Positions 1 through 41,926 of a stretch of DNA of 41,926 bases are shown piece after piece. Origin of the DNA: a virus. Both the position numbers and the translations under genes were made by a program. Position 1 is the stretch's first letter; every line of letters begins with the position of its first letter. Location of the stretch: the UHGV virus genome UHGV-0116964, one strand, 5' to 3'. The notes under the pieces are model-generated. The model was given only the letters and a program-made list of their open reading frames with translations. It ran no database searches and was not told the DNA's origin.

Positions 1-2
1 TT

Positions 3-41
3 TGTGTACACTTTTGTGTACCCAAAAACAAAAATGTGTAC
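3..41 (+). repeat. Three direct copies of TGTGTAC at the 5' end of int (about 3-9, 15-21, 35-41); possible integrase arm-type sites
   Basis: Copies read directly from the sequence; function inferred. Confidence 0.3.
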
Positions 42-48
42 CCATTCA

Positions 49-1242
49 ATGATCACCGACACAAAGCTCAGGAAGGCGCTCGGCAAGAAAAGAGATGATA
101 TCGAGATTATTTCTGATTCGCACGGGCTCAACGCCAGAATCAGCCAGGCCGGAAAAATATCATTTTTCTATCGGTATCGCTGGGCCGGTAAAGCGGTAAA
201 ACTCAATGTTGGTGATTATCCTGCAATGAGTATCACCCAGGCAAGAGAGCGTCGCCAACAATTCAGAAACTGGTTAACTGAGGGACTGGATCCGCGAGAG
301 CAGGTGAAGCTGGATAAGCAGACCCGACAGGAAGCGATGTCCGTTGCCGAAGCGTTCAATTACTGGATTGAAAGGCACTGTATCGCTAACGGGCTAGTTA
401 AAGTCGATTACTATCGCCAGGTGTTTGAGAAACATATCGCCGAACCGATGAAGAATGTCAAAGTCGATAACACAGCGAAAATGCACTGGATCAACGTCTT
501 CGATTCTATAGAAAGCAGGGTGATGGCTCATTACATGCTTTCGCTGTGCAAACGGGCGTTTAGGTTCTGCGTTAACAGAAGTGTGATCGCCTCAAACCCA
601 CTCGAGGGATTACTGCCATCTGATGTCGGGCAAAAGCCTAAAAAGAGAACTCGCAGGATGGACGATGACGATCTGCGCAAAATCTATCAGTGGTTGAAAA
701 GCCATATGTCGATAGAGTCCGTTTTCCTGGTGAAATTTATTATGCTTACCGGATGCCGTACGGCTGAGATTCGACTTAGTGAGAGATCATGGTTTCGATT
801 GGATGATAATGAGTGGGTCGTGCCTGCGGGCAGTTATAAAACTCGGGTACATATTAGAAGGGGACTCTCAGACGCCGCCGTTAACCTGGTCAGAAATCAC
901 CTCAAGAAAATAAACACCAATCACCTGGTGACTTCACAACGTAAAATTGATGGCGGGATCAAAGATTCGCCCGTTCATTCACCTGTGGCATCCAATTACG
1001 CCCGTTCTATTTGGAATGGAACAGGTATGGCAGAGTGGTCGCTTCATGATATGAGGCGGACGATAGCCACAAATCTCTCTGAGTTAGGTTGCCCGCCGCA
1101 CGTAATTGAAAAGCTGCTCGGGCATCAGATGGTGGGGGTTATGGCGCATTACAACCTTCATGACTATATCGATGATCAGAAACACTGGCTCCGCGTTTGG
1201 CAGAGCCATCTTGAAGAGATCATCGGAGAGCCCTTCAGTTAA
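49..1242 (+). CDS. int: Tyrosine integrase (P4-type)
   Basis: Track ORF 4..1242; N-terminus [10 protein letters not shown]... from the ATG at 49 resembles P4-family integrase starts; C-terminal catalytic region (HDMRRT...LLGH...MAHY) fits the tyrosine recombinase fold. Start could also be 34 or 4; no clear SD. Confidence 0.85.
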
Positions 1243-1436
1243 TTTATCTTCTTTTTATCCTCCCACTCTTTGATTGACTCAGAGCGCCAGCGGTTAGGGT
1301 TGCCGGGCCAGTCAGGGGGTGGGAACGGGCATACGAAGCCCCGAGGCATTGTGTCTGCACTTTGCCATGACCAAAGGGTTTTGCGTGAAATTTTGTAGCG
1401 ACTGGTCAGGTCTGACGTTACCAAAATATCATCCAT
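1239..1436 (-). CDS. xis: AlpA/Xis-like HTH excisionase-type regulator
   Basis: Track ORF 1239..1481; the internal ATG at 1436 has a GGAGAGAG SD and gives a ~66 aa protein with an AlpA-like ISRKTLWSW...IKEWE motif; convergent with int, 3' ends overlap by 4 bp. Confidence 0.6.
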
Positions 1437-1477
1437 AGCTCTCTCCAGTTGCCCGTTCGGGCCATTCAAAATCTTTT

Positions 1478-1720
1478 TCAACCAACCTGCCCGGGCAGGG
1501 AGCGGAGACGGCGCATGCCGGTCATCGCTGTGGCCACGTAGCTCGCCTTTCGGTTCACCACCTCCACCCAGACTTTCACGCCTTCAACCTTCACCGTATA
1601 AGTCTCTTTCATCTTGCTTCGCCCATAGTCGCCATATGTTTGCAAGTGAGCTGCCAGCGCGATGTCGCATGCTTGGCGAGCTAAAGGTGATTGCTTACTT
1701 CCTCGATTGATCAGTCGCAT
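1478..1720 (-). CDS. Hypothetical small phage protein (YdaC position of Rac)
   Basis: 80 aa ORF with AAGGAG SD 5 nt upstream of the ATG; no recognised domain. Confidence 0.55.
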   Translation of the reverse strand: MRLINRGSKQSPLARQACDIALAAHLQTYGDYGRSKMKETYTVKVEGVKVWVEVVNRKASYVATAMTGMRRLRSLPGQVG

Positions 1721-1758
1721 ATAATCTCCTTGAGGGAGGGTTACCCCTCCCGGTTTCG

Positions 1759-2877
1759 TCAGGCCACGTATTCCGGTTTCATATCCGCCAGGGTGATGCT
1801 GAATTGATCGTGCAGTTCATCGCCTAAGTGACGCTTTGAAGATGCAAGCATGCGCTCGGCTTCAGCGAACCGTTCGGCTGCATGCGGCTCGTCGGGCTGG
1901 GGCAGGGATTTAATAGCCTCCTCAACCTTGTTGCGTGCATCCACTAGGTAATAACGCTTTACGGCTTTGTTTTTCAGCTCGGTGAATAGTGCGGATCCCA
2001 GCGTAGCTTTCGCCGTTTCAATGTCGGCACGCAGCGATTTGGCGCTATCCACGTCCTGAGCAGATTCGATGCGTTCGCGGAAATCATCGGCAAGAGAGTC
2101 GACATTTACCGACGATTCCTGTGCGCTTTGCGTGGTTGTGACGGTGTCACCTGAGATATCAGCCAGGCTAACGCGTTGCGGCGTTGGGTTGATCTCTTTT
2201 TCTGTGCGCTGTTCAATCTCATCAGGGGTGTACACACCAAGAACAACTGCAGGGCAATACAGGCGCGCCCAGTATTTGAGTGCCAGATAAGCGATCTGCT
2301 GTTTCGGGTTTGATACCCAAAGTGGAGAATTACGTGTGATTACGCTGGAGAGGAAAACAGGCTCTCCCCAGGTGATATCACTTTCACCGCGAATAACGGC
2401 ACCTACCCGTACCGACAGTCCTTGTTCATCAGCACTTTCCCAACCGCGTACCATTTCTTTCTTGTCGTACGTCCCGCCACCTTTCGCAGGCTTTTTAACG
2501 GTTATCTCGCGGCTGCTGGCACATTTCGACCAGTCGCCCTCGTACTCATAGTGAAAGCGGCCAACGATGGCGTTTGAGCTGGAGATCACCGCATTAACCA
2601 GTTGCGCTTCGTATCCCAGGACACCGTTAACCAGGTGCGTCTTTTGCGCCACGGCGTAAGGGTTCATACCCCACTGCATCGCCTGCATGATGATGGCCAT
2701 GCAGTCTGCCGGATTGCCGCGGAGGTGCTCAGGCACCGTTACGGCTGCCTGTGCCATCAACCCGGCGACAGACTGAAGCTGGGTTAAAGCCTGCACGTTG
2801 AAAATGGCATTGCTGGCTGAGATCGTGTTTGGAGTCTGCTGTTCAGCGGTTACGATATTCGTGTTTTCCATCATCAT
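1759..2877 (-). CDS. recT: Single-strand annealing recombinase (RecT/Red-beta family)
   Basis: 372 aa; AIIMQAMQWGMNPY...GYEAQL resembles the Bet/RecT core (lambda Bet ALLIVANQYGLNPW); lies immediately downstream of the RecE-like exonuclease in the same operon. Confidence 0.7.
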   Translation of the reverse strand: MMMENTNIVTAEQQTPNTISASNAIFNVQALTQLQSVAGLMAQAAVTVPEHLRGNPADCMAIIMQAMQWGMNPYAVAQKTHLVNGVLGYEAQLVNAVISSSNAIVGRFHYEYEGDWSKCASSREITVKKPAKGGGTYDKKEMVRGWESADEQGLSVRVGAVIRGESDITWGEPVFLSSVITRNSPLWVSNPKQQIAYLALKYWARLYCPAVVLGVYTPDEIEQRTEKEINPTPQRVSLADISGDTVTTTQSAQESSVNVDSLADDFRERIESAQDVDSAKSLRADIETAKATLGSALFTELKNKAVKRYYLVDARNKVEEAIKSLPQPDEPHAAERFAEAERMLASSKRHLGDELHDQFSITLADMKPEYVA

Positions 2878-2882
2878 TCCCC

Positions 2883-5800
2883 TTATGCCTGAGTACGCAG
2901 CGCTTCAAGGCGGCGCAGGTCGAAGTCGTTCAGTTCGTCGGTGTAGTCAGCAGTGATTGGCGCTGGCCATTCACCTGTGTCGAATCCGGTTGCGATATTG
3001 CGCATCGCTTTGCGGTACTCGAGCATACCCAGCTCCAGTAGTTCAGCGGATGCCTCGATGATGGCGATCCAGTGGTAGTTCTCGTCTTTGTTGACGAAAA
3101 TCCAGAAGAACTGATCCAGCGCTGCGGTTTCGCAGTACATAGCCGCGCTCAGGTGATAATCACGTTCAATAATTTCCCGGTGTAGCCTGGCGCGCAGGCT
3201 TTCCTGCTTAACATTCCACATGCTGATGGTTTTCAGGTCAGCACCGATACGCACGCCGTCTAGGTCGATCTCAAGATCAGGGCGCACACGAACTTCCAGT
3301 CCCGTCTCCTCGTCAAAGCCAAAGTAGCTCACCTCAACGGCGCGGCTCGGGTGGGTTAGCAGCATGCCTGCGGTCGGGTGTGCCAGAAGCGCTTTTTGAA
3401 TATTCAGCGCGGTGCTCAGCTGCTGGCGGGTGACCAGCACTTTTCCTTCCGGGTTATCGCGCCAGGCATCCAGCAGTTCGTCGGCAAATACGGCATCTGG
3501 TTTGACTGCCTTCACGGCCTGGATCATGTCTGCTTTGGTACCGGACACTTTCAGTGGTGCCGGTTTCTGTGCTTCCTGAGCCACAAGGTCAGGGTTGATG
3601 ATTGCCAACTGCTCCAGCAGCGCGTCACGGCTGCCGCTGGTTTTAACCGGCGGCGGCAGGGTGGCGTTGTACTCTTTAATGCATGCCTTCATTGCCGTCG
3701 CCGTCTGCTTCTGGTCACCATCAATACGCTGGAAGTCAGCTGGCAGCGCCATATAGTTCTGTGCCGTTTCTTCCAGGTTAGCGCCAAGCGGAACCTGCGG
3801 CGGCAGGGTGGCGTTGTACTCTTCCAGTAACACCTTGATGTCGTCGGCAGACAGCAGCGCCGGCAGGCTGGCATTGTGCTCATCGATAAAGGCGCGCAGG
3901 GTCGCGGCCGTTGTGAATGCGCCTTCAGGGATCACCGGTTCAACGCTGAATTCTGCGTCCAGTAGTTCAGGCTGCAACGCCAGCGCATGCACCAAGTTGC
4001 CCATGTCCAGCACCGCTGAGCGCTCTTTGACGATGGTTTTCTCTACGTGGCGCGCATTGAAGTACATCAGCGAAACGCGCGCATCTTTCACCTGGGTTGA
4101 GCTGATGCCGTTGGCGGCGTGGTAAACCTCGTTTGGCAGCCCTTCATAGCGGCCTGGCTCGAAATAAGCGGGATAAACAACAGCTGGTTCGTCAGATTGC
4201 GCTTCTGGCTCGGTTTGTGCTGCAACTGGTTCGGTTTGGCTTACAGAATCGCTATTTTTGGCGACAGAATCCGTATTCTGGTTTACATCGTCCTTCTGGC
4301 TGGTATCTGACTCTTCACCAGACTCCAGACTGCTTTCGCCTGGCTGTACTTCATCACCAACATTTTTTTCATCACTGACAGTTTCTTGAACCTGCACATT
4401 GCTGGTGGTTTCCGTAGCCTGTTTCGTGCCATGAGTTGCTGAGTTCTGCAGTAAAGCCGTAACATCGAATATTCCGTTGCCGACATTTTTAACCAGTTCT
4501 TGTTCGGCTTTATGTGGTTGTGCTGTCGCTTCCTCTGCGCGGCGGCGTGCTTCTTCTTCACGTACGCGTTGCAGGTTCTCTTCGTGAGTGCAGAAGGATT
4601 TGCGCGGAGACTCCTTACCTTCAGGTTGGGGAATTTCCTGTGCTGCGGGTTCAGCCTCATGCAACGGCAATAACTCGACCGCGGAATTGAACGCGGCTGT
4701 CATGGTCTGGTTAACAAATTCCAGGTGAGCGACAGGAGTTAAATGAATATTTTCCGGTGCGATACGTACCAGGTTAAAAATAGCCGTGCGGTTAACACCC
4801 AGAACGCCTGGCTGATTGCGCAGGATGTTGCTCCATGATTTCCATGGTTCTTCTTTTTTGGTCACGATTTCTTTAGCGCGACGAAGAATGCTGCCCGGGA
4901 TCTCGAAGTGGTTGAAGTCCATAGGCAGAAGGGCACATGCAATCTCTAAATCGAGAGTGTCAAGGGTATGGTATGTATCAGGTCCACGGTCAGTGACGTA
5001 ACCGCCGTTGGCATTGGTTCCGGAATCAGTACGCTGCACACTACTGATGCGATTACCGGCGGCCCATTCGCGAACAAGGATACCGCGGTCGATGTGATCT
5101 GTAGCGAACCACAATTTCAAAAACTGGATTAAGGTTGCGAGTTCAGGGATTTTTCCATCGACAGGGAAGACTTTCTTAACGGCATTCACGACTTTATGAA
5201 TATCGTGCTCAATGGCTTTTTTGAATGCTTCCACATTCTCAGCTGCCAGCAGCAGGTTCTGGACGTACGCGTCATCGGTGTCCATCTCAAGGCGGACAAT
5301 CTCATTTTTCTGCCCTGCGTCGATGTGATAGAGATATTCACCATCACCGATGAACTGAGCCAGTACGCGCTGGCGGAATGGCAGGGTGGCAACAACGATC
5401 AGGTTCGGTTGCTGTGTCTGCTGGGATTGCTCTTCGGTATCGACTTCACCATCAACGACGCCACCTTCTGCCCGGCCGTTCTCGTCGGTCTGGATACCGT
5501 CCTCAACAGTGAGATCTTGACCAGTTGTAACGTCAGCAGCGTTGCTGGTTTCAGTTTTGAGCAACTGCAACTTACCACTGCGCCAGTCTTCTACCAGTTG
5601 ATTGCGGTCACCGGCATCGGTGTTCACCCAGTCAGACATGAATGCAGCGATCAATCTTGGTTCGTGCTCTTCGTCTGGTGTGAAAATGTCCTTAACCGCC
5701 CGAATCATTTTCCACTCAGCATTCAGGCTGAGTTTGGCGGTCGCGGGCACATCGTTCCTTGCCACAAGCAGGCTATGGAGATATGTATTGCCTTCATCCA

Positions 5801-14313: not shown

Positions 14314-14672
14314 ATACTTACAACATCACATTGCCCTGGCCGCCGAGCAATAACCGCTACTACCGCCATAATCGCGGGCGCACGCACATCAGCGCAGAAG
14401 GGCAGGCATACCGCGATAACGTCGCCCGAATCATTAAAAACGCAATGCTGGATATCGGTCTGGCTATGCCTGTGAAAATCCGCATTGAGTGCCACATGCC
14501 GGATCGCCGTCGCCGTGACCTGGATAATCTGCAAAAGGCCGCTTTTGACGCACTCACCAAAGCAGGTTTCTGGCTGGACGATGCTCAGGTCGTTGATTAT
14601 CGCGTTGTGAAGATGCCCGTTACCAAAGGTGGAAAGCTGGAACTGACAATCACCGGGCTGGAGGCCGTATGA
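14310..14672 (+). CDS. rusA: Holliday junction resolvase RusA
   Basis: GTG start; [35 protein letters not shown]...[28 protein letters not shown] is near-identical to E. coli RusA. Confidence 0.9.
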
Positions 14673-14805
14673 CATTTGAATCCTGTTTTTCCGATCACCT
14701 CCGCGTTCGCTGGCAGCGGCTTCGCTTATACCACTTTCCCGGCTCTGTGCTAACGGACTACCGGATACTGAAGAATTACGTGAAAACTTATGCTGGAGAA
14801 GCGCT

Positions 14806-15588
14806 ATGAACCTTGAAAACACAGTGAAATACCACTTCGCTAAATCCACACTGATTAGCGATTCTCCGCGCGCTACCGCCTCCGATTCACTGACCGGTAC
14901 CGACATAATGGCTGCCATGGGCATGACGCAGGAACGCGCCGCAATGGGTTACAGCGCCTTCCTCGGCAAGATGGGCATAAGCAATAACGACCGGGATCGG
15001 GCGATCGGTCTGCTGGCTGAGTACGCGATGACAAAATGCGACAAGGTTGCCGCACTGCGTAAGCTCGGTGCCGCGGTTAAACCTCAGGTGATGCACCAGT
15101 TGGCCACCTTCGCTTTTGAGGACTATTCCCGCAGCGCTGCCAGCGTGAAGCAGTGCGATTGTTGTGACGGTCAGGGCTTCATTGAGGCTGACGTGTTTAC
15201 CAATAAATTCCGTAAGCCAGAAGGGAAAATGACCGTGTCCGGGATGGTGAAGGTCAAAGAATCCATCAAAGTGCTATGCAAAAAGTGTAATGGCTCTGGT
15301 GTGGTTAGTGCTTCTTGCAGTGATTGCCATGGGCGCGGCAAGGCAGTGAACCAGGCTCTTACTGAGAAACAGGGCGTTCCTGTTCTGGCTGACTGTAAGC
15401 GCTGCGGAGGGCGTGGGTATGAACGACTTCCGTCGACTGAAGCCTATGCTGCTGTATGCCAGATTACTGACGCCATTAGCCTGGACACCTGGAAAAAGTC
15501 TGTTAAGCCATTCTACGACCTGCTGATCACGAAATTTGATATCGAAGAGTCCTGGGCCGAAAAACAGCTTAAGCAGATAACGCGGTAA
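14806..15588 (+). CDS. Late-gene antiterminator Q-like protein with four CxxCxGxG zinc-finger repeats
   Basis: 260 aa; position between rusA and the lysis genes; followed by a terminator about 100 nt downstream. Confidence 0.6.
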   Translation: MNLENTVKYHFAKSTLISDSPRATASDSLTGTDIMAAMGMTQERAAMGYSAFLGKMGISNNDRDRAIGLLAEYAMTKCDKVAALRKLGAAVKPQVMHQLATFAFEDYSRSAASVKQCDCCDGQGFIEADVFTNKFRKPEGKMTVSGMVKVKESIKVLCKKCNGSGVVSASCSDCHGRGKAVNQALTEKQGVPVLADCKRCGGRGYERLPSTEAYAAVCQITDAISLDTWKKSVKPFYDLLITKFDIEESWAEKQLKQITR

Positions 15589-15687
15589 CGCCTATAGCGA
15601 TAGCCTATGATTTTGTCTTGGGCTATTTACTTTTCCCGAATCTGTGTTAATTTTGTCCCAACGATGGGTTAATGCCTTCGTTTCAAG

Positions 15688-15715
15688 CCCTGCGGATAAC
15701 ACCGTGGGGTTTTTT
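15688..15715 (+). terminator. tR'-like intrinsic terminator downstream of Q
   Basis: CCCTGCGG-ATAACA-CCGTGGGG (two GU pairs) followed by TTTTTT. Confidence 0.5.
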
Positions 15716-15792
15716 GCGTTTCTGGAGACAGCAATACCAAGGTTCGAGACATTCAGGTAAAATTGATGCATTACAGGATGTGAGGTTGGGGA

Positions 15793-16362
15793 ATGAATAA
15801 TCTACCCGATGATTACTTTTTGGATGCGGACGACGAACTCGTTGCTTTTCTGGAGAAGCAGGGCGAGGATTGTATACGCGAAATTCACCAGTCCAACGCA
15901 CTAAACAAAGAAAATGGCCAGAAGTTATTGAGTATACTCATTGCTGGCGTGGGCTCGTCATTTTTGTTATTAACGCAACGTACAGGTTTTGATTACCTCA
16001 CCGCTGGAATGTCTGTTTTTTTAGTCTACTGGGCAATGTGTGCGGCTTATCTTGTTCGCTGCGTCCTCGTTGTAAGGTCACGAGCTCTCGTGTCATCGAC
16101 ACCCTATGCGCTTTACCATGATGGCTATAAAGGGTTTACTGAAGATGATTACACTGGTTTTGAGTCGAAAGGATTTTCAGGAAAGCGTTCAACATTGAAC
16201 GTCTTGCGGCGCTACCGGCTTGCGGATTTAACCAGAATGGCTGAAATGAGTAAAAAAGAGAATGCCAGAATAGGCCGAGAACTAGAAAGGGTAAGGATCG
16301 CTACAATCCTCACCCCTGTTTGTGCACTTGTAATCTCAGTACTTACTTACCTTTTTTTCTGA
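15793..16362 (+). CDS. Cargo membrane protein (3 predicted TM helices) at the Q-lysis junction
   Basis: 189 aa track ORF; AT-richer than neighbours; no recognised domain. Confidence 0.5.
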   Translation: MNNLPDDYFLDADDELVAFLEKQGEDCIREIHQSNALNKENGQKLLSILIAGVGSSFLLLTQRTGFDYLTAGMSVFLVYWAMCAAYLVRCVLVVRSRALVSSTPYALYHDGYKGFTEDDYTGFESKGFSGKRSTLNVLRRYRLADLTRMAEMSKKENARIGRELERVRIATILTPVCALVISVLTYLFF

Positions 16363-16492
16363 TGTTTTCAGCAGAATCGGCAACAAAGGTATAACCTGTC
16401 CTCAGATTTCTTTCGGCTGGCTGTGGAGCCGGTTTAGGCTGTGGTGCGGGTTGAGGCTTATTTTCTCCAGATGGTTTGTTTGATTCACTCAT
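16343..16492 (-). CDS. Small proline-rich ORF (49 aa), antisense, absent from the ORF track
   Basis: My translation: MSESNKPSGENKPQPAPQPKPAPQPAERNLRTGYTFVADSAENIRKKGK; GGAGAA SD 5 nt upstream; 3' end overlaps the 189 aa gene. Confidence 0.35.
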   Translation of the reverse strand: MSESNKPSGENKPQPAPQPKPAPQPAERNLRTGYTFVADSAENIRKKGK

Positions 16493-16584
16493 ATAATTCT
16501 CCATGTTTGATAGGGTTATTTTTGGCGATTTAACGATATCAAATACAGTGATTTGCTGCTAGAGCATGCACTTATCTATAACTC

Positions 16585-16610
16585 GCCCCGGCACCCGCTG
16601 GGGCTTTTTT
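16585..16610 (+). terminator. Intrinsic terminator
   Basis: GCCCCGG-CACCCG-CTGGGGC hairpin followed by TTTTTT. Confidence 0.55.
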
Positions 16611-16726
16611 ATTTCCGGCTCACGGTAATCATCCGCTACGTGCTTTGTTGATAAATCCAACCCGTGAAGCCTGAGCCTATTTCCCCTCATACCTGAGAGG
16701 ACTCACAGCAATTAAGAGGGGGCTAA

Positions 16727-17113
16727 ATGTCCGATCCAATTTCCGGTACTGGGCTGGCTGGTGGTGCCCTGACGGGTGCCAGTGTTTATGGACTGCTGAC
16801 CGGAACTGATTACGGCGTTGTATTTGGCGCATTTGCAGGGGCTGTATTCTACATAGCAACAGCAGCGGATCTGAGCGCATCGCGCCGACTGGCATATTTT
16901 ATCGTGTCGTATATTGCCGGGATCCTTTGCTCTGGGTTGGTTGGCTCCAAGCTGGCAAGCTTGACCGGATACAGTGATAAACCTCTGGATGCCATTGGTG
17001 CCGTAATCGTATCTGCTTTAGCCGTTAAGATCCTGACGTTCCTGAATAATCAGGATATCGGGTCGCTGGTGGCGCTCATAACGCGCCGGGGAGGTTCAGG
17101 TGGAGCTAAATGA
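16727..17113 (+). CDS. Holin (multi-TM, Gly/Ala-rich)
   Basis: 128 aa; AGAGGGGG SD; first gene of the lysis cassette. Confidence 0.6.
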   Translation: MSDPISGTGLAGGALTGASVYGLLTGTDYGVVFGAFAGAVFYIATAADLSASRRLAYFIVSYIAGILCSGLVGSKLASLTGYSDKPLDAIGAVIVSALAVKILTFLNNQDIGSLVALITRRGGSGGAK

Positions 17114-17381
17114 CCCGACAGCAACTATAAACGCGCTGTTATGTGCTTGTGTTGTTATTACTCTGATGTTTTATCGTCGTGGTGATTCGCGGCATCGTCC
17201 TTGGGTTTCACGTTTAGCCTGGCTGATTACTGTTACATACAGTGCTGTTCCGTTGGCCTATCTCTGTGGGATTTATCCCCATTCCTCATGGCCCATTATC
17301 GTGGCGAATACTATTTTTCTTTCCGTGCTGGTGGCCGTCAGAGGCAACGTTGCACGCCTGGTTGATCATCTGAGGCACTAA
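17100..17381 (+). CDS. Second holin-like / antiholin membrane protein
   Basis: 93 aa with 2-3 hydrophobic helices, between holin and endolysin. Confidence 0.5.
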   Translation: MELNDPTATINALLCACVVITLMFYRRGDSRHRPWVSRLAWLITVTYSAVPLAYLCGIYPHSSWPIIVANTIFLSVLVAVRGNVARLVDHLRH

Positions 17382-17995
17382 TGAACCAACAATTATTTCA
17401 AAAGGCGGCTGGTATCAGCGCCGGACTGGCTGTGCGCTGGTTTCAACCAGTAGATGCAGCGATGAAAGAATTCGGCATTACAGCACCCGCGGATCAGGCC
17501 ATGTTCATCGCTCAGGTAGGTCATGAGTCTGGTGGCTTTAGCGCTGTAGTTGAAAATTTGAACTACACACCATCTGCGCTGGTGGCGACGTTCGGAAAGA
17601 GGATCACACAGCAGCAGGCTGATGCCCTTGGCAGAACATCCGGACATGCAGCTCGTCAGGATGCTATTGCCAATCTGGTGTATAGCAACCGCCTGGGTAA
17701 CAAAGCGCCCGGCGACGGCTGGAAATATCGCGGCAGAGGGTTAATTCAAATCACTGGCCTCGACAATTATCGCACCTGCGGGGCTGCTCTGAAGTTAGAT
17801 TTGGTGACTTCACCTGAACAACTGGAACAGGAACTACAGGCTGCGCGCTCAGCTGCATGGTTCTACACCTCTAAAGGCTGCATGATCTACGGTGCCGATA
17901 TTAATCGTGTTACTCGCATCATTAACGGCGGTCTGAACGGTATTGAGGATCGTAAGGTCCGATACAACAAGGCGCGGGCGGCGCTGCTGGTATGA
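17381..17995 (+). CDS. Endolysin, glycoside hydrolase family 19-like
   Basis: 204 aa; FIAQVGHESGGF...YRGRGLIQITG...INGGLNG motifs typical of GH19 phage lysozymes. Confidence 0.8.
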   Translation: MNQQLFQKAAGISAGLAVRWFQPVDAAMKEFGITAPADQAMFIAQVGHESGGFSAVVENLNYTPSALVATFGKRITQQQADALGRTSGHAARQDAIANLVYSNRLGNKAPGDGWKYRGRGLIQITGLDNYRTCGAALKLDLVTSPEQLEQELQAARSAAWFYTSKGCMIYGADINRVTRIINGGLNGIEDRKVRYNKARAALLV

Positions 17996-36028: not shown

Positions 36029-36215
36029 TTGTTACTCCTGTAGTCAATAATGCGATGGTGCAGGTCCACTCTATGGCGGCTTCATGGCTGAAATTGATTT
36101 TCAATGCTTACTTGTTGCAAACATATCCTAATACACCTTGTGAATGTGTGCCATTGCAGCGGAAAAGCCTTACTTCACACTGATGTAGCTTAGTTACTAA
36201 GAGATAATTGATACC

Positions 36216-36239
36216 AAACCAGCTTCGGCTGGTTTTTTT
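36216..36239 (+). terminator. Intrinsic terminator
   Basis: AAACCAGC-TTCG-GCTGGTTT perfect stem followed by a T-run, 12 nt before the next tail gene. Confidence 0.6.
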
Positions 36240-36250
36240 ATGGGGGTTTT

Positions 36251-36991
36251 ATGCCAATTCCAACTCAATCACAGATCGGCGGTGAGCAGCAGACCGCGCA
36301 GGCCATTGCCGATTCGGTGTCGACCCAGATGCGCGTAGCGATGCCCGGCATCATTCAGTCGTTCGATCCTGAGACTGTTACCTGCACAGTAGAGGTGGCG
36401 CTACGCGGTATTGTTGGCGATGGATCCACCGAATTAAAACCGCTGGTGGATGTGCCGGTCATCTTCCCGCGCGGCGGCGGTTGCACGCTGACCTTTCCGG
36501 TAAAAGAAGGCGACGAGTGCCTCCTGATTTTTGCTGACCGTTGCATCGATTTTTGGTGGCAGAGCGGCGGCGTTCAGGAGACCGTCGACCCGCGCCAGCA
36601 TGACTTATCTGATGCGTTCGCCATCGTTGGCCCGCAGTCGCAAGCACGGAAAATCAGCGGTATCAGTACCAGCGCCGCGCAGCTGCGAACCGATGATGGT
36701 GCGGCGTTTGTAGAAGTCGCCGCAGGACATAACATCACCATTAAAACACCGGGCCAGCTTACAGCTACGGCTGAAGGTGGAACGACAATCACATCCCCGA
36801 CTATCACGCTGAACGGCAACGTAACGATTAATGGCAACTTGTCTCAGGGAATGGGCGAAAGCGGCGGTACTGCGACGATGCTTGGGCCGGTGACGGTAAC
36901 GAATGACGTAACAGCTTCTGGTATCAGTGTCGCCACGCATAAACATGGCGGAGTACAGACTGGCGGGGGAACTACCGGAGGGCCGCAATAA
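36251..36991 (+). CDS. Baseplate spike / central protein (Mu gp45-like)
   Basis: 246 aa; Gly/Thr-rich C-terminal repeats typical of spike proteins. Confidence 0.55.
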   Translation: MPIPTQSQIGGEQQTAQAIADSVSTQMRVAMPGIIQSFDPETVTCTVEVALRGIVGDGSTELKPLVDVPVIFPRGGGCTLTFPVKEGDECLLIFADRCIDFWWQSGGVQETVDPRQHDLSDAFAIVGPQSQARKISGISTSAAQLRTDDGAAFVEVAAGHNITIKTPGQLTATAEGGTTITSPTITLNGNVTINGNLSQGMGESGGTATMLGPVTVTNDVTASGISVATHKHGGVQTGGGTTGGPQ

Positions 36992-37344
36992 TGCGATACC
37001 GTCGCGAAGATACTGAAGGCGATTACACTTTCGGCCAGGGTGACGATACTTTCCTTATCGACAGTCCGGAATGTGTCGCCCAGGCCGTAAAAACCCGTTT
37101 CGAGCTGTGGCGCGGTCAGTGGTTTCTCGATCTGACGGAAGGCACGCCGTATGTTCAGTCAGTGCTTGGGAAGCAGCGATCAGATGTCTACATCCTGGCT
37201 ATACGCGAACGCATACAGGATACACCGGGCGTTCTGTCGATTCTTTCCTTCGATACCAATTATGACGGCACCAGCCGTCGCGTCACCTTCACTTCCTCCA
37301 TTGACACAATCTACGGCCAGACGACTGTAACAAGCGAGGCATAA
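36991..37344 (+). CDS. Baseplate protein (putative)
   Basis: 117 aa; ATGA-coupled. Confidence 0.45.
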   Translation: MRYRREDTEGDYTFGQGDDTFLIDSPECVAQAVKTRFELWRGQWFLDLTEGTPYVQSVLGKQRSDVYILAIRERIQDTPGVLSILSFDTNYDGTSRRVTFTSSIDTIYGQTTVTSEA

Positions 37345-38544
37345 ATGGCTTTGAACCTCGACACGCTGGGGCTATCGGCAACGGTAACCGCCCAGGGGAT
37401 TAGTGCGCCTGATTACCAGACAATCCTAGATACACTGACCAGCTATTTCAGGCAGATTTACGGTAGTGATGCCTACCTCGAACCAGACAGCAAAGACGGG
37501 CAGATGGTCGCGCTGGTGGCTCTTGCCGTGCATGACGCTAACAACACCGCTATCGGGATCTACAACTCTTTTTCACCGACGACAGCGCAGGCCGCAGCGC
37601 TTAGCAGCAATGTGAAAATTAACGGGATCACGCGAAAAGTAGCGACAAACTCTACTGCTGACCTTCTGTTAACCGGTACGGCAGGCACGACTATCACGAA
37701 TGGCTCCGCACGGGATAAAAACGGCATTATCTGGAATTTTCCCGCAAGTGTAGCGATCGGCGTTGATGGTACTGTGCTGGTGACGGCCACATGTGCGAAT
37801 AGCGGTTCGGTTGCGGCGCTGGCCGGGACTATTACCACTATCAACACCCCGACCCGAGGTTGGGTGTCGGTAACCAATCCAGTTGCGGCTACTGTCGGTT
37901 CACCAGCCGAAACCGACGCAGAGCTGCGCATTCGGCAGGGGCAAAGCGTCGCGCTACCATCGATCACACCGTTTGAAGGTGTCGACGGTGCTATCGCTAA
38001 TGTTGCTGGCGTGACACGTCACAAACTATATGAGAACGACACTGGGGCAACCGACAGCAACGGGCTGCCGCCACACTCTATTTCCGCCATCGTCGATGGA
38101 GGGGATGTTACCGAGATAGCCCAAACAATCCGGGGGAGTAAAGGGCAGGGAACCGCAACTTACGGTACAACTTCTGTCACCGTGCCGGATACTTACGGTA
38201 ATCCTCACGTCATCAGTTTTTCGCGTTCTACCGATGTGCCAATTTTTGTAGCCATTACCCTGAAAGTTTTTACCGGGTATACATCTCAAATCGGCGAGCA
38301 GATAAAACAGGCTGTTGCCGATTATATAAATGGCCTGGCAATTGGCGATGACGTTCTGCTGAGTCGTATTTATTCCCCGGCAAACCTTGGCGTGGTAAGC
38401 GGAGGCAGTGCTCGCTATTACGACATTCAGGAGCTGCTCATCGGCAAATCCTCTGACTCAGTCGCAAGCGGAAATATCGATATTGCTTATGACGAATCTG
38501 CGTCATGCGTTGCGAGTCACGTCACTATCACGGTGACCTCATGA
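37345..38544 (+). CDS. Baseplate J-like protein
   Basis: 399 aa; size, position and ETDAELRIR motif fit the baseplate J family. Confidence 0.7.
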   Translation: MALNLDTLGLSATVTAQGISAPDYQTILDTLTSYFRQIYGSDAYLEPDSKDGQMVALVALAVHDANNTAIGIYNSFSPTTAQAAALSSNVKINGITRKVATNSTADLLLTGTAGTTITNGSARDKNGIIWNFPASVAIGVDGTVLVTATCANSGSVAALAGTITTINTPTRGWVSVTNPVAATVGSPAETDAELRIRQGQSVALPSITPFEGVDGAIANVAGVTRHKLYENDTGATDSNGLPPHSISAIVDGGDVTEIAQTIRGSKGQGTATYGTTSVTVPDTYGNPHVISFSRSTDVPIFVAITLKVFTGYTSQIGEQIKQAVADYINGLAIGDDVLLSRIYSPANLGVVSGGSARYYDIQELLIGKSSDSVASGNIDIAYDESASCVASHVTITVTS

Positions 38545-39221
38545 GCAAATACACCGAACTGATCACTAACTACCATGCTACCAAGCCACTCTTTTTTGAC
38601 CATATAGATCTGAGCACCCGCCCGCTGATTGATGTGTCCAGCACTATGTCAGGGCTTGTAACAGCCTTCGATATCGATACGGCGGTTGGCGTGCAACTCG
38701 ATATCCTCGGCCTGTGGATTGGGCGTAGTCGTATAGTCAGCCAGCCAATTAGCGGCGTTTATTTCAGCTGGGACACTGACGGGCTCGGATATGACCAGGG
38801 CATCTGGCAAGGGCCATATGATCCTGATTCTGGCTATACGACGCTGAGTGATGAGACGTACCGCATCATTCTGAAAGCGAAAATCGCTATCAACAACTGG
38901 GATGGTCGGAACGACTCTCTGCCTCCCATCCTTGACGCTGCTACCGCAGGCTCTGGACTGAAGATGCAGATCGTCGATAACCAGGACATGACGATATCGG
39001 TCTGGGTTTTTCCCGAGACTGATATTTCTGATGTGTCACTCGAACTGATAGCCGCTATCAAACAGGGTTATCTCACCGTTAAAGCTGCTGGTGTATGGGC
39101 TGGCGGCGTTGAAACACCCTCAGTCGAAACACCGTCCGAAGGAACAAAATTCTTTGGATTTGACATGGATAACGAATACATCGCCGGTTTTAATGACGGC
39201 GCATGGGGGAGATTACTTTAA
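38541..39221 (+). CDS. Baseplate/tail protein (Mu gp48-position)
   Basis: Internal ATG of track ORF 38505..39221; ATGA-coupled. Confidence 0.5.
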   Translation: MSKYTELITNYHATKPLFFDHIDLSTRPLIDVSSTMSGLVTAFDIDTAVGVQLDILGLWIGRSRIVSQPISGVYFSWDTDGLGYDQGIWQGPYDPDSGYTTLSDETYRIILKAKIAINNWDGRNDSLPPILDAATAGSGLKMQIVDNQDMTISVWVFPETDISDVSLELIAAIKQGYLTVKAAGVWAGGVETPSVETPSEGTKFFGFDMDNEYIAGFNDGAWGRLL

Positions 39222-39847
39222 TGGCTGGAACTAATGATTTTAAAGCGTTTGCGACAGATGCTAATGCAAATGTTACCTCGCAGGAGGAATGGGAGACGCT
39301 AACCGCACTGAAGAAAGGATTCTCCTCGGGTAAAGCATCCAGCGCACAGGTCAGTAAAGCGCTGCGCCAACCGTCGACGATGGCGGCTGTACTGGGGCAG
39401 TTTATCGCGAACGCCGAACTGGACGCGCTCGATGATGGTGACGTTGATGGACTGGTGGCAAAGCTGGCGACAGCGATTACCACAAACCTTGGTTTAGGAG
39501 AAGCGGCGAAAAGGGATGTGGGCACAGGAGATAATCAGATACCGGATATGGGAGCATTCGCTTCTGGTTCGGGATGGTTCAGGCTACCAGGTGGATATAT
39601 TGTTCAGTTTGGCACTTTTTCAGGAAACACGACCCGCTTTATCAGTGGACACTTCCCTATACCATTCCCTAATCAGCCGATGGTTTCAGTCAGTGTTATG
39701 TCTGATGCCGTTCAGTCAGACCCGTCGAATCCTGCCCCGCAGGTTTTGTCTGTAAATTTTGAACATATCAGTAATTCAGCGTGGCGTGTGGCAACCAGTG
39801 ATATCTCACAGCAATACAGATTCAGTTATATTTCGATAGGACGGTAG
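39221..39847 (+). CDS. Tail fibre protein (constant N-terminal ~93 aa plus current variable C-terminus)
   Basis: Internal ATG of track ORF 39203..39847; crossover site lies in codons ~88-94. Confidence 0.6.
   Translation: MAGTNDFKAFATDANANVTSQEEWETLTALKKGFSSGKASSAQVSKALRQPSTMAAVLGQFIANAELDALDDGDVDGLVAKLATAITTNLGLGEAAKRDVGTGDNQIPDMGAFASGSGWFRLPGGYIVQFGTFSGNTTRFISGHFPIPFPNQPMVSVSVMSDAVQSDPSNPAPQVLSVNFEHISNSAWRVATSDISQQYRFSYISIGR
39477..39502. promoter_or_regulatory. Invertase crossover site 1 (TTACCACAAACCTTGGTTTAGGAGAA)
   Basis: AAACC-TT-GGTTT core as in hix/gix/cix sites; inverted partner at about 41293. Confidence 0.6.
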
Positions 39848-41292: not shown

Positions 41293-41318
41293 TTCTCCCA
41301 AACCAACCTTTTTTATAA
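41293..41318. promoter_or_regulatory. Invertase crossover site 2 (TTCTCCCAAACCAACCTTTTTTATAA)
   Basis: Matches the reverse complement of site 1 at 20 of 26 positions, including the central AA. Confidence 0.55.
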
Positions 41319-41377
41319 CCATCAAAAATCTGGTGATGCTTCGCCGTTTCTCCTGTTTTCATAACAGGAGAAATCCC

Positions 41378-41926
41378 ATGATTTACGGTTATGCCCGAGT
41401 ATCAACAAACCACCAGGACACTGAATTGCAACTAACGGCGCTCAAGTCAGCGGGTTGTGAGAAAATTTTTGAAGAGCATGCCAGCGGGAGGAAATCGAAT
41501 CGGCCGGTTCTAAAACGGCTGATCGCCACTATGCAGCCGGGGGATGAACTGGTGGTCTGGAAGCTGGACAGGATAGGCCGCAACGTTCTGCATGCGCTGT
41601 TGATGTTCCAGCAGTTACAGGAAAAGGGTATCAACTTCCGCAGTATTACCGATGGCGTGGATCTCAAAACAGCCAGCGGCCGCTATAACTTTCGTAACAT
41701 CCTTTCCGCAGCACAATATGAATCTGATCTTAATAGCGAACGTACCTTAGCAGGGCTGGCCGTAGCCAGGGCAAAAGGGCGAGTTGGTGGTCGCAGGCCT
41801 AAGTTCACGGATGAGCAATGGTGGGAAATGGGGGAGCGGATGGCAACCGGTGAATCACGACAAAGCGTATCAAAAACATATGGAGTAGGGCTCTCAACTC
41901 TGTATAAAAAGTTTCCAGCTAGCTGA
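41378..41926 (+). CDS. Serine DNA invertase (Hin/Gin/Cin/Pin family)
   Basis: Internal ATG of track ORF 41219..41926 with AGGAG SD; MIYGYARVSTNHQDTELQ...GRRPKF is the resolvase/invertase catalytic N-terminus with a C-terminal HTH. Confidence 0.9.
   Translation: MIYGYARVSTNHQDTELQLTALKSAGCEKIFEEHASGRKSNRPVLKRLIATMQPGDELVVWKLDRIGRNVLHALLMFQQLQEKGINFRSITDGVDLKTASGRYNFRNILSAAQYESDLNSERTLAGLAVARAKGRVGGRRPKFTDEQWWEMGERMATGESRQSVSKTYGVGLSTLYKKFPAS

Follow-up and report, generated by a model that had tools for sequence, protein, structure and literature searches.

A mobile pair of convergent, overlapping genes between the late antiterminator and the lysis genes of an Escherichia coli prophage

The virus genome UHGV-0116964, whose full length of 41,926 nucleotides (nt) is the window analysed here, is an Escherichia coli prophage of ~40 kb that matches, in mosaic blocks at 95-99% identity, a prophage of strain AR_0119 flanked by kch and yciI. 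Between the terminator tR', which follows the late antiterminator gene Q, and the lysis cassette, this window carries two genes that together make up a self-contained, horizontally mobile accessory ("moron") module. The first, the open reading frame (ORF) ORF189, encodes a predicted inner-membrane protein of 189 amino acids (aa), and the second, a small ORF on the opposite strand, encodes a basic protein of 49 aa that is rich in proline and glutamine (P/Q-rich). Both are real genes, and they form an obligate pair with a fixed geometry in which the two 3' ends overlap. Prophage morons as a kind are already known; what sets this one apart is that its two families, both uncharacterised, are arranged with an obligate convergent overlap, which is unusual. 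As to function, we tentatively favour a phage-conflict system in which a membrane effector is paired with a small antagonist and convergent transcription would toggle the two, a reading that we regard as quite possible.

Two convergent genes with overlapping ends

ORF189 (15793-16362, plus strand) starts 75 nt past tR' and is preceded by a GAGG Shine-Dalgarno sequence. The initial annotation of the window described a protein with three transmembrane (TM) segments, and three hydrophobic helices are indeed present at residues ~45-61, 69-95 and 166-189, the first of them marginal on the Kyte-Doolittle scale (~1.54). The AlphaFold2 model of the protein is a long three-helix bundle (helices 14-62, 68-92 and 134-188) with a mean predicted local distance difference test score of 83. 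The charge is -8 ahead of TM1 and +5 in residues 93-167, a stretch containing 15 lysine and arginine residues. As the hydrophobic segments and the charge distribution place both soluble parts on the cytoplasmic side, periplasmic exposure would be nearly nil, and the predicted layout runs from an acidic N-terminal helix in the cytoplasm through a hairpin of TM1 and TM2 and a basic loop and helix, again cytoplasmic, to TM3 at the C-terminal end.

Among 5.8 billion proteins searched, ORF189 homologues form ~115 clusters (90% identity), nearly all of them exactly 189 aa long, at 43-94% identity, and all unnamed. Their hosts are without exception Enterobacterales, including Klebsiella, Cedecea, Salmonella, Proteus, Citrobacter, Yersinia, Pectobacterium, Edwardsiella, Morganella, Serratia and Pantoea, among others. 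More distant relatives, 105 in number and falling into three clades, were found with a profile search of 1.84 billion representatives. Divergent alignments lacked conserved stretches by which further loci could be located, and no record was found for the truncated homologues P0113 and P0033. The best-conserved part of the protein is its N-terminal ~62 residues, the acidic helix that enters TM1, with the consensus DDYFLDADDELVxFLEKQGEDCIREIxQSN..NKENG.KLLSILI.G.GSSFLLLTQ. The ratio of nonsynonymous to synonymous substitution rates (dN/dS; Nei-Gojobori method) is ~0.08 for ORF189.

On the minus strand, the frame of the small ORF is open over 16343-16504 (53 aa), and the conserved start, which is also the one called by PGAP (WP_162842358.1), is the ATG at 16492, giving a gene at 16343-16492. 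Its basic product, MSESNKP...VADSAENIRKKGK, contains 8 prolines among its 49 residues and has an isoelectric point of 9.9, and a GGAG Shine-Dalgarno sequence stands 6 nt ahead of the ATG; the antisense, proline-rich 49-aa ORF with a good ribosome-binding site that had been pointed out initially is therefore confirmed. The gene is convergent with ORF189, and its last 20 nt overlap the ORF189 3' end. The same arrangement is seen in 80 of 80 related loci from IMG/VR, where the small ORF lies on the opposite strand and overlaps the 3' end of ORF189 by 20-35 nt. It was detected with tblastn in 66 of these loci and by motif in the other 14, the motif being MS[EQ]xNKP, a P/Q-rich stretch and then [DR][FN]xxxRxxVGDSA[DE]xxRKKxK. 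One of the 80 copies (L079) has an N-terminal truncation.

Conservation of the small protein is strong only over the C-terminal ~20 residues, the N-terminal two thirds being of low complexity and P/Q-rich. In the part of the gene that does not overlap ORF189, dN/dS by the same method is ~0.49, and the proportion of synonymous differences (pS) exceeds that of nonsynonymous differences (pN) in 560 of 561 pairs. A homologue search yielded only 15 close, unnamed relatives. The small protein is cytoplasmic, largely disordered and basic, and the small ORF is a conserved protein-coding gene and not a chance ORF.

Neither protein had been recognisable at the outset, and no family in Pfam (E ≤ 10), NCBIfam, PADLOC, the PDB or BFVD matches them. 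Across 73 members of the ORF189 family, Pfam gave only four sub-threshold matches to domains of unknown function (DUFs; E ~0.005) and no SLATT match, and a sequence-profile search of the PDB was likewise negative. In PHROGs, the only match of ORF189 is phrog_11870 (E = 6e-84), and the small ORF matches phrog_14506 (E = 5e-26), both annotated as of unknown function. Literature searches by topic, accession and PHROG number, together with the DefensePredictor supplements, returned no mention of either protein.

Cargo slots, mobility and distribution

The junction between Q and the lysis genes had been interpreted in the initial annotation as a slot for cargo, and comparison with related genomes bears this out. 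The flanks at 15400-15727 (through tR') and 16600-16681 are present at 80-93% identity in mEp237, HK225 and E. coli KL53, and because these flanks are shared while the content between them differs, the insert can be delimited to 15728-16599, with the right flank beginning inside the second terminator. The slot of mEp237 holds a 213-aa ORF on the late strand (2555-3196, plus strand, of L002), that of HK225 an antisense 136-aa ORF (2245-2655, minus strand, of L003), and that of KL53 only 254 bp without a convincing gene (2214-2467 of L004). Each of these three versions of the slot has a terminator of its own, with the terminator 3' half and T-run in common. The G+C content of the insert is 44.2%, whereas the Q gene, the lysis genes and the window as a whole are at 52-53%. 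Megablast found the insert, at a coverage of at least 80%, in 6 of 5,426 complete E. coli genomes; parts of the region are shared by 241.

The pair moves between different Q and lysis backgrounds. Of the 49 non-redundant genes that neighbour it upstream in the IMG/VR loci, 17, 8, 7 and 2 belong to four different Q-like PHROG families, respectively, and the downstream neighbours comprise holins of phrog_20, phrog_126, phrog_198 and phrog_217, several endolysin families and spanins. The pair is thus not tied to a holin type or to lysis genes, which argues against its being a lysis component. The initial annotation had named a holin or antiholin as what ORF189 might instead turn out to be; the protein has no holin-family similarity, at least four unrelated holin families lie downstream of it, and copies are also found far from lysis genes.

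It had also been asked whether homologues always sit between Q and the lysis genes, and they do not. A tail-operon sub-clade (L042-L047 and L050) occupies a cargo island beside Rha/Ant-like genes, directly before the tape-measure gene. Clade C of the ORF189 relatives resides in the S-V slot of P2-like phages. In L091 the module stands beside a cI/cro pair, and its ORF172 (P0160) belongs to clade B, while in L093 an ORF175 (P0144) that groups with the window's own clade sits in a chromosomal island adjoining gmk-rpoZ-spoT, together with Bro-N, DUF2513 and SSB genes. In L091, L092 and L093, gene callers predict a membrane protein 24-30% identical to ORF189 and a convergent small gene whose overlap with it measures 21-30 nt. 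The N-terminus is P/Q-rich in two of these three small proteins, and each of the three has a related tail (..DS[AV].. or ..RDGFTVDKIQKR). These observations show the pair to be a self-contained, mobile module, and its identification as cargo, and not lysis machinery, is supported.

Several further features of these distant copies were recorded. L093 and L094 are metagenome contigs (~1-5500) in which ORF175 is accompanied by a 64-aa convergent gene, and the island also holds HATPase_c_3 and RNase_T genes, which would make it a possible defence or mobile island. A conserved third gene of the module was considered and rejected, as the 270-285-aa neighbours in L085, L091 and L092 are mutually unrelated. 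In the P2-like phages (~63-65% G+C), the distant ORF189 relative between S and V is an ORF160, and in L090 a proline-rich 47-aa antisense ORF (1380-1523, minus strand) overlaps the ORF160 3' end by 19 nt. The flanks of this P2-like clade do not represent a displaced lysis cassette; they encode soluble acidic proteins without PHROG matches.

The distribution of the module is patchy and sparse. It was found in 2 of 72,556 plasmid records, in 5 of 50,697 sequenced phage isolates and at 8 loci among 185,579 species-representative genomes, and in three of these eight loci ORF189 is broken. In Leclercia adecarboxylata NCTC13032 (L105, 3001-3867), the ORF189 homologue is frameshifted after ~70 codons and the small ORF, MSEQNKPQGENKPQ...VGDSADSVIEHIKKQQK, is intact. 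In Yersinia pekkanenii and Symbiopectobacterium (L103 and L104), ORF189 is truncated and the small ORF was not found. A patchy, sparse and partly decayed distribution, in combination with residence in accessory slots, fits conflict genes.

Relative to the AR_0119 prophage, the window is a mosaic with blocks at 82-99% identity. Around the slot, the gene order is DUF1367 protein, YbcO, RusA, YlcG, Q, cargo pair, two holins, GH19 endolysin and Rz-type spanins. The right neighbours of the slot are the two tandem holin genes (16727-17381, plus strand), one encoding a 128-aa PF16931 protein (16727-17113) and the other a 93-aa PF05449 protein with three TM segments (17100-17381); they overlap by 14 nt ahead of the GH19 endolysin and constitute an unusual double-holin cassette. 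At the right end of the window, 41293-41926 matches at 99.7% the region of a recombinase-family (invertase-type) gene of AR_0119, which there adjoins gp53-like tail-fibre segments of opposite orientation. An invertase-type gene beside opposed tail-fibre segments suggests a host-range segment that inverts, and the regions concerned in a possible tail-fibre inversion are ~36200-39300 and 41293-41926.

Transcription signals of the pair

The left neighbour of the slot is the gene for a Q-type late antiterminator of 260 aa (14806-15588, plus strand; PF03589, E = 2e-45; phrog_127, E = 6e-104), whose homologue in E. coli AR_0119 carries the annotation "antitermination protein". Downstream of this gene, window positions 15626-15675 (plus strand) match the late promoter pR' and the 6S RNA start of lambda column for column, and the initial transcribed region CAACGATGGGTTAAT is identical in both. 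The stretch is therefore assigned as pR', with a -35 hexamer TTTACT (15626-31), a -10 hexamer TTAATT (15647-52), a spacer of N15/16 and a start at ~15660, labelled after the established lambda elements. The first intrinsic terminator, tR' (15685-15718, stem 15685-15712, plus strand), has an 11-bp stem and a T-run, with a folding free energy (dG) of -17.7 kcal/mol and a z-score of -2.8. Both the Q-like gene with its downstream terminator and a second strong terminator had been predicted in the initial annotation, and both predictions hold. The second terminator (16585-16612, stem 16585-16604, plus strand; dG -17.5 kcal/mol, z -3.1) lies just past the promoter of the small gene and consists of an 8-bp stem, in which seven pairs are GC, and a T-run. 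A plus-strand terminator is found at this position in nearly all related loci. The only Rfam signal in 15400-16900 is one sub-threshold NsiR1 match over the second terminator, and no Rfam family was assigned. On the minus strand, the region of the second terminator shows no terminator-like structure. In addition, a search for a minus-strand terminator between 16343 and 15589 found none, and as none intervenes between the small ORF and tR', a leftward transcript would be antisense to ORF189.

Ahead of ORF189, the conserved CATTCAGGTAAAAT (15750-15763, plus strand) contains a candidate -10 hexamer, TAAAAT (15758-63), and may be part of a promoter of ORF189's own. A TAAAAT-like hexamer occurs 28-36 nt ahead of the ORF189 start in 37 of 54 non-identical upstream regions, tail-slot copies included. 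A copy of CATTCAGGTAAAAT with two mismatches, CATTCTGGTTAAAT, lies on the minus strand inside ORF189 (16226-16239); with two CATTCAGGTAAAAT-like copies found in the window against 0.29 expected and 6 of 100 shuffles reaching two, this is within chance.

The small gene is preceded by a conserved promoter-leader (16493-16541, minus strand) composed of a putative extended -10 element TGATATCGT (16541-16533), the leader TAAATCGCCAAAA... and the GGAG; the whole block, TGATATCGTTAAATCGCCAAAA...GGAGAATT..ATG, spans 16541-16490 and is a single copy in the window. In 28 of 34 non-redundant loci, an element TGnTAT(C/T)GT with a variable n position stands at a fixed 37-44 nt from the small-ORF ATG. Of the nucleotide stretches compared, the 30-nt leader block is the best conserved, with a mean pairwise identity of 77%, the values being 71% over the initial 180 nt of ORF189 and 60% over the initial 30 nt of the small ORF. 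The element has the features of an extended -10 promoter and would direct transcription leftward.

A scan of IMG/VR with the leader sequence retrieved at least 120 stretches. A longer form of the element is carried by 63 loci (among L106-L184), about half of which have the small ORF and ORF189. In the other half, the leader also points leftward and lies downstream of Q-like genes, 110-500 nt (in a few cases more) before the lysis genes, and unrelated ORFs are found at the same distance past the element. This leader-linked cargo includes a protein of 80 or more aa beginning MASFTVRVELVG... (10 loci), DUF2441-like proteins of 177-180 aa (8 loci), a zinc-ribbon protein of 67 aa (7 loci) and several uncharacterised proteins of 148-170 aa, and in total the leader is common to at least ten other cargo genes of the same slot. 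Many leader copies also contain a CCAGA-N6-7-TCTGG palindrome centred near -41, which is degenerate in the window. As other cargo genes have it too, the leader was rejected as a signal specific to the module; the small gene instead uses a shared cargo promoter-leader of the Q-lysis junction.

Possible function

We infer the promoters, the antisense control, the protein-protein antagonism, the membrane action and the defence role that make up the favoured reading, and together they would work as follows. The small gene would be expressed in the lysogen from its leftward extended -10 promoter, and its transcript would run antisense through ORF189, damping both the weak promoter of ORF189 and such transcription as leaks past tR'. 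The small protein may in addition bind ORF189 and thereby keep it in check. Induction, or an infecting phage that disturbs host transcription, would flip this balance. Upon induction, Q-modified polymerase starting from pR' would pass tR', ORF189 and the second terminator and overrun the leftward promoter, leaving ORF189 in excess. The site of action of ORF189 would be the inner membrane, approached from the cytoplasmic side, with superinfection exclusion or abortive infection as its most likely role and lysis an unlikely one.

Known systems offer partial parallels to such a module. In lambdoid phages, described cargo of the Q-lysis slot comprises stx in Stx phages and the porin genes lc and nmpC in PA-2 and DLP12. 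The module resembles these morons in its position past Q, pR' and tR' and before the holin, in its conserved flanks with swapped content and in its deviant composition, and it has a terminator and candidate promoters of its own; it differs in that its content is unrelated to the described cargo, in that it consists of two convergent overlapping genes and in that it occupies other slots too. HK97 gp15, which blocks DNA entry, is the product of a moron that immediately precedes the tape-measure gene within the tail operon. Like gp15, ORF189 is a small membrane-protein moron, and its tail sub-clade is also found just before the tape-measure gene, but gp15 is a single small protein without a partner, and the two are likened by description. 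The HK97 protein is a predicted inner-membrane exclusion protein (PMC10883804).

P22 SieA is a prophage-expressed inner-membrane protein of 162-164 aa with three predicted TM domains that blocks DNA injection, and SieA types are less than 30% identical among themselves (PMC10883804). Both SieA and ORF189 are prophage accessory proteins of ~160-190 aa with three predicted TM helices and no signal peptide; however, SieA acts alone, without a convergent small partner, and is located in the immI region, and ORF189 has a large conserved cytoplasmic part. SieB, also expressed from the prophage, stops macromolecular synthesis in superinfecting phages in mid-cycle (PMC10883804). It is 192 aa long and has N-terminal hydrophobic helices. 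According to Ranade and Poteete (1993), SieB is reportedly controlled by an internal inhibitor, Esc, and by a small antisense RNA, sas. The model proposed here likewise combines an effector in the membrane with an antagonist and with antisense control, but Esc is a version of SieB truncated in frame and not the product of a convergent gene, and the system is positioned in the PL operon. SieA, gp15 and SieB/Esc/sas may be regarded as the closest functional analogies, by analogy only.

Several results weigh against a phage-conflict system of this design. No defence model of PADLOC-DB v2 matches either protein at E ≤ 1, and hhalign with the 73-sequence family profile gave a probability of 0.2% both for membership of ORF189 in the P22 SieA family and for membership in the P22/lambda SieB family, so that both assignments were rejected. 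A consensus promoter scan of 14500-17500 made no call, pR' included, and the 54 upstream regions of ORF189 have no conserved -35 and lack the -10-like hexamer in 17 cases. Since the leader is common to unrelated cargo, its conservation says little about the ORF189 module. In L088 (4100-4350), an ORF160 identical to that of L090 is followed by a shorter gap with no convincing small ORF, and the partner may therefore be dispensable in the P2-like clade. In each of the three slots within phage late operons (Q-lysis, tail and P2 S-V), ORF189 points in the same direction as the late genes, which would also fit a purely late function in the lytic cycle.

The alternative that survives best is lysogenic conversion of host physiology, in which the module would alter the envelope or membrane (tolerance to stress, colicins, antibiotics or serum, transport or signalling) to the benefit of the lysogen independently of other phages; we consider it unlikely. 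The module has the anatomy of a moron, with candidate signals of its own, deviant G+C content and a swap slot, the slot classically holds virulence or fitness cargo such as stx, and the module has spread over many genera of Enterobacterales. The sequence, however, points to no specific physiological activity, the nearly absent periplasmic exposure of ORF189 is unlike that of surface-modifying conversion factors, and the sparse distribution (6 of 5,426 E. coli genomes, 8 loci among 185,579 genomes with 3 decayed) is more typical of conflict genes with fast turnover.

It is improbable that the pair is a selfish addiction (toxin-antitoxin) module whose only role would be to stabilise the prophage, with ORF189 as membrane toxin and the small gene as a labile protein antidote, an antisense-RNA antidote or both. 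In txpA/RatA and bsrG/SR4 of Bacillus prophages, type I toxin-antitoxin systems with a membrane-targeted product, the two genes are convergent and overlap at their 3' ends. The module has this convergent transcription, the overlapping 3' ends, the membrane product and the prophage location, with a small disordered partner facing the membrane protein, and the order of decay in L105, where ORF189 is broken and the small ORF intact, is as expected for a toxin and its antidote, albeit in a single case. These toxins are shorter than 60 aa and their antitoxin is a non-coding RNA, whereas the module pairs a 189-aa protein that has large conserved cytoplasmic parts with an antisense gene that encodes a protein under purifying selection; membership in the type I systems was accordingly rejected. 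The membrane protein of L088 lacks a clear partner, and plasmids, on which addiction modules thrive, hardly ever carry it (2 of 72,556 records), which argues against a generic addiction module of the plasmid type.

An accessory role in the timing of lysis, with ORF189 as a late holin- or antiholin-like protein and the small protein as its inhibitor, together tuning the two downstream holins, has to be rated as distinctly improbable. In most loci, the pair lies directly upstream of holin genes in the orientation of the late operon, the window already has its unusual double-holin cassette, and a small antagonist resembles the logic of holin and antiholin. Class I holins have three transmembrane helices, the same number as ORF189. 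However, neither Pfam nor PHROGs showed any similarity of ORF189 to holin or antiholin families, while the two downstream genes match holins strongly; a protein of 189 aa with ~120 cytoplasmic residues is atypical of holins; at least four unrelated holin families follow the pair, and copies lie far from lysis genes; and related backbones such as that of KL53 lyse without cargo in the slot.

Least probable of all is that only ORF189 matters as a protein and that the small-ORF region is an antisense RNA or promoter with an incidental frame: the best-conserved nucleotides do lie in the promoter-leader and not in the coding part, the dN/dS of ~0.49 is relaxed and the N-terminal two thirds of the small protein are of low complexity, but the frame is open in 80 of 80 loci even though identity is so low that tblastn misses 14, pS exceeds pN in 560 of 561 pairs with a specific C-terminal motif kept, the start codon and Shine-Dalgarno sequence stand at a fixed distance from the leader, and a small protein of like composition is encoded in distant modules as well.

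Beyond a phage-conflict role as such, the pair might be the first representative of a hitherto undescribed class of phage-conflict systems that have two components and act on the membrane (abortive infection/exclusion or toxin-antitoxin-like), although this broader proposal is doubtful. The defining trait of such a class would be an obligate convergent 3' overlap, and a disordered antagonist expressed in the lysogen, along with its antisense transcript, would gate the three-TM effector. The switch would be interference by Q-dependent late transcription or loss of the antagonist upon infection, and the leader would be a plug-and-play cassette for unrelated cargo of the Q-lysis junction.

If the module does nothing measurable, it is an ordinary unknown moron. 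It is nonetheless a compact module of 0.87 kb under strong purifying selection, without annotation in the libraries searched, and the accessory sites at which it recurs, in temperate phages and islands, are of at least five kinds. The obligate convergent overlap, which sets a membrane protein on the late strand against an antisense small protein, suggests a built-in switch between lysogenic and lytic states. The leader, in turn, provides a sequence tag with which lysogen-expressed cargo in enterobacterial prophages can be mined, and the accessory slots of prophages are among the main sources of functions, still to be discovered, that act against phages or modify the host.

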